Of a stretch of DNA of 64,000 nucleotides, positions 15,297 through 22,792 are shown piece by piece (position 1 is the stretch's first letter; the number at the start of each line of letters is the position of its first letter). This stretch comes from an uncultured Candidatus Saccharibacteria bacterium (GTDB lineage: Bacteria; Patescibacteriota; 4484-211; JAGQKX01): assembly GCA_964392315.1 (NCBI GenBank), contig CAYMOT010000003.1, positions 67,665 through 131,664 on the forward strand. The letters run 5' to 3'. The translations under genes were made by a program, and so were the position numbers. A model generated the notes under the pieces. It saw nothing but the letters and a program-made list of their open reading frames with translations. It made no database searches and was not told the origin of the DNA.

Positions 15297-17435
15297 TTGC
15301 TATGCTTGATCTGTATGCATCAATCTCCCGAGCTCAGACACGAAATACTATCGCAGTACAGAGCCGCACGTGAGACTCTTACTCCAGAACAACGGGCAAA
15401 TCTTAGAGACATTCTCCGCGACGCTGAAAATCCTGCTCGTGCATATGACTGGTTTATTGGACTATTGGGTGATGAAGACTTAGCGGCACCCGAATCTTAT
15501 AACGCGTCACCATCTGAGCAAGAACTCTTAGAGAGGCAGTTAGAACTTGTCGATGCATTAGACACCTTTGTTGCAGATCCCCTAAGCATTCCTACCGAAA
15601 GGCACCCACAGCTCCTGAGACACTTAGCGTATCAGATGGAACGTGACCTCCCTACCCTCACCGGTGACCCACTCAAACCCGGAGAACATCTTGTGTCTCT
15701 TTCATTTAATGGTGTAAAAGCACTTAACCAAAACGGCGCAGGCATACATATAACCAATTTAATCCTCCAAAGATTTCGACAAGAGATAGACACCGCACTA
15801 CGGCAGCATGACCTAGTGGATGTAACAATGATCCCAACACAACAGCTATGGAAACGGGTAAGTTTTCGGATTTCCGAAGGAGATGCGGCTACGATCAGAG
15901 AAAAAACAGCGATACTCGAAGCACAAGTAACAGAACGGATACAGGCATATATCGACACATTTGATGATATAGACATCCCTCCGGAAGCAAAAACAGAAAC
16001 AAAGAATTCCATCCATATAACAAGCGGACTTGCATCTGCGCGGGAAAGCGAAATGGATGTTTTTGATGCATTGCAGATATCTGTCATGCAGTGTGAGGCC
16101 CAAAACTTTTTTGACGATTGTGAGGACAAGCGAGAAGTAATCCGAAGATATCTGGAAGAAACGCCAGGAGCTCAAGAAGTACTCGCACTGCTTGATCGTG
16201 AACTACCCGACACGTCTGAAGAACAGATGCAGCATTTGTTCGAAACATCGGATGCAATACATAGATATATCGTGGCTGTCTCCCAAAGATATGCACCTAC
16301 TTATGTAGAAGAAATGCCAGAGCTAAATGGCAATCTAGGCTTATCCGAGACATTCTTTGCTCATATTAGGCAAGACAACCTTGCAGCCATGTTTGATGCG
16401 TTTGAAGGTGCACCACTTACGCGAGGTGAAATAATCGCACTCTCACACCTTGGCGGTCTGTATACAAAGTCACTATTCACTCCTGCAGTACTCAAAGAGT
16501 TTACCCACGAACAATCAGCCCAGCATACCCGCAAGACCCAAGCATTACAGTCATCAACTGAACGAATACTGGCACTCGCAAAAGTGGGCAAAGTAACTCC
16601 TGAAAACGCACTTACCGCGAAACAACATCTTGCAGAAGCATGGGATCATCTACGAAGAGACCATCGGTTTACTGATGCTGGGCTCAATGGGTTATTCATG
16701 AATTCGCTTTTTTTTGATGAAACTGCATTAGCATATGACTCCCCGCAGTATTTATCACTTGACCTTATAGGAGTAGGCGCCGAATATCTAAAAGAAGCAC
16801 AGGTTGCCCAACAACGCATTGCTGCAACTGGCAACACCTATGCAGCCATCGTTACAGAAACAAGAACCCTGAGCGAAAACAGCTGGAGACGAATAAAAAG
16901 AACCTTTGACACAGTCGGCACATCACTCACGCAAGAACCATCTATCGCACCGTATATTACAGAAAATTATGGCCTAATTCCTGCGTTTACCAAGGGAGAT
17001 GAGATGGTGATCGCAATCCCCGGAACTATTCCAACCGAGGATATTATTCGGGCGATGCAGCGGTCGCTTCGAGAGTTGGGCTCGGAACATGGAAAAAAGG
17101 ATGCGCGGGTTTCTCTTGCGACAGCAGTACGACCTGACCTGCCCCACCAATCACCTAATGACCGAATTGCAGCACATCTTGATACACGTGTTCTGAGTGA
17201 AAAAGTGGGGATTGATATTGCGAAGAAATTAGAATTAATAATCCCGGATGGCGTAACAGAAATTGCACGGGATGAACATGGTACCATTCGATTCCGCGTT
17301 CATTGGGGTAAGACAGCAACTCAAACTACACGATGGTTTGACGTTAGTGACATACTAGATAAATCCGATGATGAAGATGATTTAGATCAATATAACCGAT
17401 TGCTTGATGAGATTCGTTCTATAGTTAGGGAATAA
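15297..17435 (+). CDS. Large hypothetical protein (712 aa)
   Basis: Long uninterrupted ORF with no motif I recognise; acidic C-terminus. Confidence 0.55.
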   Translation: MLCLICMHQSPELRHEILSQYRAARETLTPEQRANLRDILRDAENPARAYDWFIGLLGDEDLAAPESYNASPSEQELLERQLELVDALDTFVADPLSIPTERHPQLLRHLAYQMERDLPTLTGDPLKPGEHLVSLSFNGVKALNQNGAGIHITNLILQRFRQEIDTALRQHDLVDVTMIPTQQLWKRVSFRISEGDAATIREKTAILEAQVTERIQAYIDTFDDIDIPPEAKTETKNSIHITSGLASARESEMDVFDALQISVMQCEAQNFFDDCEDKREVIRRYLEETPGAQEVLALLDRELPDTSEEQMQHLFETSDAIHRYIVAVSQRYAPTYVEEMPELNGNLGLSETFFAHIRQDNLAAMFDAFEGAPLTRGEIIALSHLGGLYTKSLFTPAVLKEFTHEQSAQHTRKTQALQSSTERILALAKVGKVTPENALTAKQHLAEAWDHLRRDHRFTDAGLNGLFMNSLFFDETALAYDSPQYLSLDLIGVGAEYLKEAQVAQQRIAATGNTYAAIVTETRTLSENSWRRIKRTFDTVGTSLTQEPSIAPYITENYGLIPAFTKGDEMVIAIPGTIPTEDIIRAMQRSLRELGSEHGKKDARVSLATAVRPDLPHQSPNDRIAAHLDTRVLSEKVGIDIAKKLELIIPDGVTEIARDEHGTIRFRVHWGKTATQTTRWFDVSDILDKSDDEDDLDQYNRLLDEIRSIVRE

Positions 17436-17441
17436 TACGTA

Positions 17442-17771
17442 CTAATCTGAAGATTGTTGCTGGAGAAGTTCTTTCATACCTCCTACCTGCAATTGTTCGA
17501 CATATTCACGCGTCAGTTCATCACTTACTTTCTGGGGTTCTTCACCGGTTTCTTCAATAAATCTTTGTCTGATATATGCATTTGCCTCTTCTTCATCTTC
17601 AATTTGCTCTAGCTTTTGATAATCCTCCTCTACCATTATCTTGGTAAGCATACGATCCATGTTTCTGGCAACTTCAATGCCTATTGATTCCACAACCAAT
17701 GCTCGTTCAGCTTGACTTAGTTGCATCTTATTAAATAATTCTTCAAGTTTTTGAGCTATTTGTGTATCCAT
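17442..17771 (-). CDS. Small acidic helical protein (109 aa), partner of the 662-aa protein
   Basis: Immediately downstream of 17775..19763 on the same strand; highly acidic and predicted all-helical. Confidence 0.5.
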   Translation of the reverse strand: MDTQIAQKLEELFNKMQLSQAERALVVESIGIEVARNMDRMLTKIMVEEDYQKLEQIEDEEEANAYIRQRFIEETGEEPQKVSDELTREYVEQLQVGGMKELLQQQSSD

Positions 17772-22423: not shown

Positions 22424-22447
22424 TAAAAAGTTAGTTATAATAAACAT

Positions 22448-22792
22448 ATGAATACAGACGATATTGTATTTAGTGATGCAATCATAAAGCAACATATAGA
22501 GCTTTCTTCAATTCCTGAGGAGGAAAAACAAGAGCTCATTGATGCTATCCCATCTATGGATCAAGTGATGCGTGCACGGCTTGTAATCAATTTGCAGATG
22601 CAAAGAGTAGTACAAGAAACCCGTGAACAGGAACAAATATATGACAGTTCAACCTCCGACGAACAAGTCGAGCAAGACCTTAAAGAGTTTGAATCAAAAA
22701 AAAAAGCTGAATACCACCGCAACGCAGCACAACTAAAGAGTACTCGGATCCTCGATAAAATACATAATCCTTCCTCAGACAGCCAAGATTGA
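22448..22792 (+). CDS. Small acidic helical protein (114 aa)
   Basis: Immediately downstream of the 863-aa gene; acidic, with a poly-Lys patch. Confidence 0.5.

Follow-up and report, generated by a model that had tools for sequence, protein, structure and literature searches.

A conserved five-gene neighbourhood in a Saccharibacteria genome encodes a predicted Cas10-like, two-Palm protein beside two large genes with small acidic partners

The subject of this report is a block of five open reading frames (ORFs) lying between positions 15297 and 22792 of a 64-kb stretch of contig CAYMOT010000003.1, from an uncultured Candidatus Saccharibacteria bacterium. That whole stretch is what we call the window, and positions and strands are given in its numbering. 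The three large ORFs are labelled L712, L662 and L863 and the two small ones S109 and S114; L662 and L863 are each followed by a gene for a small acidic protein, and L712 encodes a protein that is Cas10-like in build but is not a Cas10. All five ORFs had been called in an initial annotation of this DNA, and the genes are real, as seen from their ratios of nonsynonymous to synonymous substitution (dN/dS, 0.04-0.20) and from their synteny in relatives. Two of the lengths given then, 712 and 662 amino acids (aa), describe the ORFs but not the proteins, which homologues and public gene calls put at 706 aa for L712 and 645 aa for L662; the labels keep the older figures. The block and its parts are as follows.

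15297..17435, + strand: L712 ORF in the earlier 712-aa reading, start revised to the ATG at 15315
15315..17435, + strand: L712, 706 aa, Cas10-like, two Palm domains; predicted to be a cytoplasmic homologue of nucleotidyl cyclases or polymerases
15666..16052, + strand: Palm-N of L712, residues 118-246, degenerate; from hhalign and the model
16716..17150, + strand: Palm-C of L712, residues 468-612, with putative active site D483, G561-D562-[E/D]563 and R598
17442..17771, - strand: S109, 109 aa, small acidic five-helix protein, 3 nucleotides (nt) downstream of L662
17775..19763, - strand: L662 ORF in the earlier 662-aa reading, start revised to 19712
17775..19712, - strand: L662, 645 aa, start taken from public gene calls
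17778..18080, - strand: conserved C-terminal domain of L662, residues 545-645, with LysM-like ends VVEAGHPLEHML ... YPGQTLDIP
18642..18917, - strand: putative membrane-embedded region of L662, residues 266-357, with glycine-zipper-like segments and the basic loop RWHLKKQLTPAERLRFEERYKNARYK
19713..19831, no strand: divergent control region of 119 nt between L662 and L863
19832..22423, + strand: L863, 863 aa, large protein with RGG tail
22448..22792, + strand: S114, 114 aa, small acidic protein, 24 nt downstream of L863

The large genes had been described as lying back to back, and this is not how they are arranged: they alternate between strands and make up three transcription units. L712 (+) converges on S109 (-), which follows L662 (-); beyond the 119-nt divergent region come L863 (+) and S114 (+), the latter converging on tgt (-). 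The stop codons of L712 and S109 are 6 nt apart (17435..17442) and the 3' end of S114 overlaps tgt by 18 nt (22775..22792); a terminator-like hairpin was looked for at both junctions and none was found. The control region contains a perfect TTGACA at 19785-19790 and an AT-rich TATAG box that ends about 10 nt ahead of the L863 ATG. Four lineages keep both the ATTGAC core of the -35 box and the TATAG box unchanged, among them that of a related locus, L094, in which the gene downstream is not homologous to L863. The description of this promoter as near-consensus thus fits the TTGACA and the conserved TATAG, but not the -10 hexamer at canonical spacing, which agrees at 3 of 6 positions, and a consensus promoter scan did not call this site. 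That L863 has little or no leader, as also proposed, is supported by the conserved TATAG box directly upstream of its ATG.

The block is rare. Among 5.8 billion proteins clustered at 90% identity, there are 8 clusters for L712, 7 for S109 and 3 for L863, and among 1.84 billion sequences clustered at 50% identity the L712 family has about 10 representatives, none of them annotated. Three related loci, L011, L012 and L013, hold all five genes followed by tgt. Identity between relatives of the L011/L012 type and the window is 74% for L712, 61% for S109, 60-64% for S114, 52-55% for L662 and 51% for L863, which makes L712 the best conserved gene of the block. In L094 and L097/L098, whose L712 proteins are 41-69% identical, L712, S109 and L662 stay together. 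L863 and S114 are replaced by other genes in L094 and in a further locus, L095, where the position of L662 and S109 is taken by a sequence-unrelated pair: a protein of 925 aa, hydrophobic in an N-terminal segment, and after it an acidic one of 101 aa. Comparison of L011 with L012 gives dN/dS values of 0.09 for L712, 0.04 for S109, 0.18 for L662, 0.20 for L863 and 0.10 for S114. These values place every gene of the block under purifying selection, with S109 and S114 constrained more than L662 and L863.

The surroundings of the block are also shared. Upstream, the window and L095 have the same order of genes for an OB-fold protein, an M23 peptidase, FtsX, FtsE and prfB (1800..7277 in the window, 1795..7457 in L095, whose L712 is 42% identical), and the window and L094 have the prfB and tgt flanks in common. 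The stretch from prfB to tgt is rich in orphans and variable, with L712, S109 and L662 as its stable core, so that the shared prfB/tgt frame marks the block as the conserved core of an otherwise variable chromosomal stretch. No L712 homologue was found in phage sequences, in plasmids (tblastn) or in the IMG/VR collections, and two JGI metagenome scans and one IMG/VR scan returned no relatives of the block. Eighty loci of species-representative genomes, selected by tgt, contained neither a block homologue nor shared synteny; the best tgt matches among them were 42-43% identical and taxonomically mixed (Saccharibacteria, Paceibacterota and Clostridia). The block is, in short, a rare, conserved and lineage-restricted five-gene neighbourhood, probably inherited vertically and, by these searches, chromosomal rather than mobile.

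None of the five block proteins, nor of the five encoded by a second cluster described below, scores above threshold in Pfam, NCBIfam, PADLOC or PHROGs. The sub-threshold matches of these ten proteins (TACC_C, LmuB, HlyD, ATP synthase b) are due to coiled-coil bias. Hidden Markov model (HMM) searches of PDB sequences with profiles of L712, Palm-C, S109, S114, L863 and the L662 C-terminus likewise gave no meaningful match.

L712 had been taken for a low-complexity protein without enzymatic motifs. It is neither: the family alignment shows long invariant motifs, and an AlphaFold2 model built from nine sequences contains two Palm domains, folded as beta-alpha-alpha-beta-beta-alpha-beta units at residues 125-241 and 478-602. 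In a Foldseek search of the PDB with this model, the first 18 matches were without exception Cas10/Cmr2/Csm1 structures (best E 1.6e-6, probability 1.0, about 600 aligned columns), and the next were mammalian tandem adenylyl cyclases (from E 8e-4), the GGDEF cyclases SiaD and DgcZ, and Thg1. Profile-profile comparison by hhalign with an alignment of GGDEF domains (four PDB chains and two domains from fetched loci) gave P 4.8e-5 and a probability of 68% for Palm-C, with TKGDEM placed on GGDEF, and P 4.9e-4 for Palm-N, with SFNGVKALNQ placed on DxDxFKxIND. Eleven controls, comprising reversed sequences, four other L712 segments, the small-protein families, the L662 C-terminal domain and LysM, gave P values of 0.07-0.7.

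Palm-C carries an invariant signature, D...[K/R/S]GD[E/D]...R. Its residues D483, G561, D562 and R598 do not vary among 14 family members, the most distant of them 16% identical, and at position 563 either E or D is found, in agreement with GGDEF and GGDD. The model places D483 at the end of beta1, G561-D562 at the turn of the beta2-beta3 hairpin and R598 on beta4, and the sites of D483 and G561-D562 are those at which Palm-domain cyclases and polymerases hold metal ligands. In Palm-N, SFNGVKxLN stands in place of the DxDxFKxxND of GGDEF domains and PTQQLWKR in place of GGDEF; the acidic residues are absent, and a single chain would therefore combine one degenerate Palm with one that may be active, which is also the build of Cas10 and of the C1-C2 pair in mammalian adenylyl cyclases. 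We consider it likely that L712 is a homologue of Palm-domain nucleotidyltransferases. Whether it is also catalytically active is a question on which our judgement is evenly balanced, and the active site is putative. Four of the 14 family members also showed a sub-threshold Pfam match to CATASP (CATRA-associated small protein; best E 3.2e-5), which in L712 covers residues 187-234 (about 15873..16016), on helix alpha3 of Palm-N.

Cyclases of the Cas10 type have been described in type III CRISPR complexes and, from 2025 onwards, as the minimal mCpol of Panoptes. Like L712, Cas10 (Csm1/Cmr2) is a chain of about 600-800 aa in which two Palm domains are parted by helical domains and the second bears an acidic hairpin (GGDD in Cas10; [K/R/S]GD[E/D], with the first Gly replaced, in L712). 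Unlike Cas10, L712 has no HD domain (none in Pfam or NCBIfam, and no His-Asp pair among the conserved columns), and no cysteine is found among its invariant or near-invariant columns, whereas Cas10 has a Cys-rich zinc finger between its Palms. Cas10 genes are accompanied by Cas5, Cas7 or Csm/Cmr genes and a CRISPR array, none of which occurs with L712 in the 64 kb; its neighbours, in the window and in all relatives, are orphan or housekeeping genes. L712 also matches no Cas10 sequence profile in Pfam, NCBIfam or PADLOC. For these reasons we do not call it a Cas10. A genuine Cas10 was looked for among the fetched loci and none was found. A CRISPR context for L712 was considered and ruled out: the window contains no CRISPR-like repeat array and no Rfam match, nor does it contain a tRNA gene.

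Other two-Palm or Palm-like enzymes resemble L712 in part. The mCpol/OptS protein of Panoptes has a single Cas10-derived Palm, dimerises and works without CRISPR RNA (PMC12657218, PMC12657230), and its gene shares an operon with that of an S-2TM-beta, CARF-2TM or SAVED-2TM effector (PMC12657218). It shares with L712 a Palm enzyme free of CRISPR and an adjoining protein with two hydrophobic segments, but L712 has two fused Palms in 706 aa in place of one dimerising Palm, and it is convergent with L662, in which no nucleotide sensor is recognisable, rather than sharing an operon with an effector. GGDEF cyclases (PF00990) share the beta2-beta3 hairpin and flanking helices of Palm-C and the beta1-alpha1-alpha2 portion of Palm-N, and the GDE triplet of L712 fits GG[D/E]EF; they differ in having two helices between beta1 and beta2 where the Palm-C model has four, and in forming homodimers where L712 has an intramolecular tandem. 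When PF00990 was run against the 14 family members, none reached even E 10. Mammalian adenylyl cyclases (C1-C2, class III) are like L712 in carrying two homologous catalytic-fold domains per chain, one of them degenerate, with a single composite active site as the outcome, but their structural match is much weaker than that of Cas10, and L712 lacks their six-helix transmembrane (TM) bundles. No class III signature was found in L712, although none was tested for.

L662 begins with a variable Pro-rich third and continues with two hydrophobic stretches that flank a basic loop. Next come a variable Ala/Gly/Asp-rich region, which aligns poorly and often differs by insertions and deletions, and a conserved C-terminal domain; about 40% of the protein is variable low-complexity sequence. 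The hydrophobic segments, residues 266-290 and 339-357, are Gly/Ala-rich and were judged by Kyte-Doolittle windows of 19 residues, a heuristic for which the usual TM cut-off is 1.6. A TM segment had been proposed for L662, and it holds insofar as hydrophobic stretches are present and recur in the homologues of L011, L012, L094 and L097; there are, though, two weak ones, both below 1.6. Residues 266-357 are one of the two best conserved parts of L662, and the well conserved loop belongs to a basic patch (+8 per 40 aa) at about residues 240-340.

The other well conserved part of L662, and the best conserved of all, is the C-terminal domain of about 100 aa, which is 49% identical in the L094 homologue, where it reads TVEAGDTLDKIL ... 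GTGQELNIP. Its ends resemble LysM (PF01476), with a start of the form V-x-x-G-[D/H]-[T/P]-L-x-x-[I/M]-L and an end of the form G-Q-x-L-x-I-P, but unlike LysM it has some 50 residues inserted between the two halves. The LysM-like character reported earlier was not confirmed: in hhalign against eight PDB LysM repeats the match is weak and covers the first half only (P 4.4e-4, probability 34%; controls P 0.06-0.42), and Pfam, a profile search of PDB sequences and phmmer with the LysM consensus all failed to detect LysM there. Any extracytoplasmic location of the L662 C-terminus would depend on this putative assignment.

S109 has an isoelectric point (pI) of 4.3 and a net charge of -14, and AlphaFold2 models it as five helices (predicted local distance difference test score, pLDDT, 88.4; predicted TM-score, pTM, 0.73). 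Foldseek found no significant match for the model in the PDB (best E 4.2) or among the BFVD viral models, so that its predicted fold appears to be without a counterpart in the PDB and is perhaps new. In size (about 100-115 aa), acidity and position beside a presumed client, S109 and S114 recall FliS, type III class I chaperones and EsxA/WXG100 proteins, as S109 does also in being helical. Type III class I chaperones, however, are alpha/beta proteins, and the five-helix S109 model (pLDDT 88) matched no FliS, EsxA/WXG100 or type III chaperone structure (EsxA at E 9.4, probability 0.05). S109 contains no Trp and therefore no WXG motif, and no secretion apparatus is encoded nearby. The comparison with chaperone folds suggested in the initial annotation thus returned nothing.

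In L863 a conserved N-terminal part of about 440 aa precedes a variable helical middle, and beyond this come a second conserved stretch (about 720-790) and a basic tail rich in RGG and Pro (about 797-863). The RGG-rich tail reported before is there, with a net charge of +9 over the last 40 aa; the long coiled coil is there in part, as the strict heptad signal is limited to residues 521-600. Database matches of L863 are of the coiled-coil type only. It has no signal-peptide-like N-terminus and no hydrophobic segment, and the same holds for L712: no 19-residue window of either protein has a mean hydropathy above 1.0, and their N-termini are polar or Pro-rich. Both are probably cytoplasmic. S114 has a pI of 4.7 and a net charge of -10, gave no PDB sequence match in an HMM profile search, and is 60-64% identical at the same position in L011 and L012. 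In L094 this position is occupied by a 133-aa acidic protein (16431..16832 of that locus, +) that has the N-terminal motif pattern of S114 and is matched marginally by the S114 profile (E 0.053), even though the large gene ahead of it shows no homology to L863.

That large genes are paired with small acidic ones is real and not due to chance. L662 and L863 are each followed on their own strand by the small gene, as first described, and the pairs are adjacent in every examined relative that has an L662 or L863 homologue. The stop-to-start gap between L662 and S109 is 3 nt in the window and 4, 7, 9 and 35 nt in relatives, that between L863 and S114 24 nt in the window and 22 and 18 nt in L011 and L012; S109 adjoins the L662 homologue in L011, L012, L094 and L097. 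Wherever a relative encodes an S109 or S114 homologue, that protein is acidic too, and computed pI and charge uphold the description as acidic for both S109 and S114; that they are helical is upheld by the all-helical model for S109. L712, in contrast, has no small partner of its own, so that not every giant protein is paired. Charges are complementary within each pair, S109 (-14) against the +8 patch of L662 and S114 (-10) against the +9 tail of L863. Membership of all the small proteins in a single paralogous family was considered and ruled out by hhalign, in which S109, S114 and a family from the second cluster (that of S107) are mutually unrelated. A dedicated-partner relationship is plausible because the pairing is conserved and tightly spaced and because L095 has an unrelated but analogous pair. 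We lean towards the prediction that each small protein binds its upstream large protein, for which the evidence consists of gene coupling, conserved adjacency and complementary charge.

The explanation that we favour for the block as a whole, though with no more than even confidence, is that of a signalling enzyme beside two complexes of a large protein with an acidic partner. In such a model the Palms of L712 would pack as an intramolecular pseudo-dimer in which Palm-C keeps the metal-binding signature, and the enzyme would condense nucleoside triphosphates into a nucleotide signal, perhaps a cyclic di- or oligonucleotide or a related product, without CRISPR RNA or Cas partners. L662 and S109, co-translated from a tightly coupled bicistron, might form a stoichiometric complex, with L662 associated with the membrane through a glycine-zipper-like hairpin and the acidic S109 bound to its basic juxtamembrane region on the cytoplasmic side. 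L863, with its basic RGG tail, would act as a coiled-coil scaffold in the cytoplasm, and S114 would be its acidic partner. That L712 and the two pairs act in one pathway is a more tentative proposal, which we incline to doubt because what speaks for it is synteny within one clade and because P0014, a distant member of the L712 family, has no such neighbours.

Several results weigh against this explanation. The L712 model is of moderate quality (pLDDT 68, pTM 0.49), and its global TM-scores to Cas10 are 0.15-0.20, from which it follows that the two agree in domain order and local fold and not in rigid-body geometry. The first Gly of GGDEF or GGDD is K, R or S in the L712 family, and neither Pfam, NCBIfam and PADLOC nor an HMM search of PDB sequences links L712 to a Palm family. 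Both L662 hydropathy maxima, 1.35 and 1.08, lie under the usual TM cut-off. L712 is convergent with the L662-S109 operon and not co-transcribed with it, and no CARF, SAVED or cNMP-binding sensor domain was detected in any neighbour of L712. P0014 stands without small-plus-large neighbours, and a second distant family member, P0013, does so as far as its short contigs reach; the enzyme, then, does not depend on them.

The initial annotation had proposed a surface, attachment or secretion system, with the large proteins as effectors or adhesins, secreted or at the surface, and the small acidic proteins as their chaperones, escorts or immunity proteins. We find this quite improbable. Of the observations named there as refuting it, a lack of conserved adjacency in relatives does not apply, and a cytoplasmic location of the large proteins probably does for two of the three. 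A small acidic helical protein directly after a large one is typical of chaperone-substrate pairs, and here the pairing is conserved; L662 offers hydrophobic segments and a C-terminal domain with LysM-like ends, the prfB-tgt stretch is orphan-rich and lineage-variable, as host-interaction loci often are, and three small proteins with signal-like N-terminal segments are encoded just upstream. Two of the three large proteins, though, L712 and L863, are probably cytoplasmic by the hydropathy heuristic, with neither a signal peptide nor a TM segment, and L712 is a homologue of Palm-domain enzymes. S109 shows no FliS, EsxA or type III chaperone fold and no WXG motif, the small proteins are not homologous to one another, and LysM was not confirmed by Pfam or by the PDB profile search. 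Neither within the block nor beside it is there a domain of a secretion ATPase, secretin, toxin or adhesin, and Pfam, NCBIfam, PADLOC and PHROGs detected no toxin, adhesin or secretion-machinery domain within it. Nothing found shows the block to be a secretion or attachment system.

A reading as anti-phage signalling of the type III CRISPR or Panoptes kind has the Cas10-like fold of L712 in its favour: L712 would make a cyclic nucleotide, L662 would disrupt membranes as the effector, and S109 would regulate or, in the manner of an antitoxin, inhibit. The known association of mCpol with 2-TM effectors (PMC12657218, PMC12657230), the two hydrophobic segments of L662, the variability of the downstream genes and a type I restriction-modification system elsewhere in the window are all in keeping with it. 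We nevertheless think it unlikely, given that L662 has no detectable beta-barrel, CARF or SAVED domain and is about 40% variable low-complexity sequence, that L712 and L662-S109 are not one operon, and that the prfB-tgt synteny is deep and chromosomal, searches of phages, plasmids and IMG/VR having turned up no copies. With two Palms in 706 aa, L712 is moreover not a minimal polymerase, its distant relative P0014 has no such TM neighbour, and PADLOC, whose database predates Panoptes, finds nothing. Somewhat more credence, although still a minor share, goes to the view that these are functionally unrelated orphan neighbours, kept in order by little rearrangement in a small genome, in which small-after-large has no shared meaning. 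Three unrelated small-protein families, three units on alternating strands, the replacement of L863 and S114 by non-homologous genes in L094 and L095, and the solitary distant L712 relatives all speak for it. It does not sit easily with L662-S109 gaps of 3-9 nt (in 4 of 5 lineages) that persist where the proteins have diverged to 36-38% identity, with dN/dS values lower in the small proteins (0.04, 0.10) than in their large neighbours (0.18, 0.20), or with an analogous large-plus-small-acidic pair at the same position where sequence similarity is lost.

A bolder form of the signalling-enzyme explanation, which we regard as unlikely, would make L712 a full-length, CRISPR-independent descendant or sister of Cas10 that serves as a fixed chromosomal signalling enzyme whose nucleotide product controls a membrane protein, L662, which may bind the cell wall, with S109 as the regulatory subunit. 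If this were true, the cyclase architecture of type III CRISPR would have been put to housekeeping or envelope control in a lineage that is seemingly genome-reduced.

Independently of that bolder form, a Cas10-sized two-Palm protein that has conserved catalytic residues, lacks a CRISPR context and sits in stable synteny beside housekeeping genes would supply the intermediate that is missing between GGDEF-like cyclases, mCpol and Cas10, and would suggest that nucleotide signalling by Cas10-type architecture is not limited to immunity; the L712 family would be one that escapes profile annotation. The two conserved bicistrons are concrete candidate complexes specific to this lineage.

The pairing of large and small genes had also been said to recur elsewhere in the window, in a second cluster.

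29758..34303, - strand: second cluster, in transcription order S135, M355, S110, S107 and L765, then secA

The likeness extends to gene size and not to order, charge or family. S107 and S110 have a net charge of 0 and lie upstream of L765; S107, S110 (probably 88 aa, 32386..32652) and S135 are paralogous (E 1e-13 and 0.005-0.014), and profile-profile comparison shows the S107 family to be unrelated to S109 and S114. The second cluster is thus a loose resemblance in gene size and not a repeated module. L765 (29758..32055, -) carries an Arg/Ala/Gly-rich repeat of about 65 aa twice in nearly identical form, GERVR.V..AVQGRARAVGDRVRAG.QNERDAVRRQAEFT.GQV.RAGEAV, and lies directly upstream of secA on the same strand.

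Some further features of the window deserve mention. The three small proteins encoded just upstream of the block (12836..14330, +) are orphans of 130, 139 and 151 aa that all carry a hydrophobic segment at the N-terminus; the GC content of this stretch is 54% against about 43% elsewhere, and in L011 and L012 homologues of the 151-aa protein occupy this position as well. Between them and the block lies an NYN-domain gene (14687..15028, -) that is 113 aa long from a TTG start and 166 aa long on a near-identical public contig, so that its true start is probably further upstream. Short tandem repeats occur at 4402..4452 (8 nt), 11364..11414 (8/16/24 nt) and 12271..12342 (21 nt), the last of them lying within ORFs of about 330 aa that overlap on opposite strands and lack a Pfam match. 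The type I restriction-modification operon (46593..53946, -) encodes HsdR (932 aa), a 384-aa ORF without a Pfam match, HsdS (395 aa), a 227-aa ORF and HsdM (525 aa). Finally, the gene at 37387..39486 (-) encodes a 699-aa class II aminoacyl-tRNA synthetase (tRNA-synt_2 with an OB anticodon-binding domain) that ends in a C-terminal HD domain, an unusual fusion.

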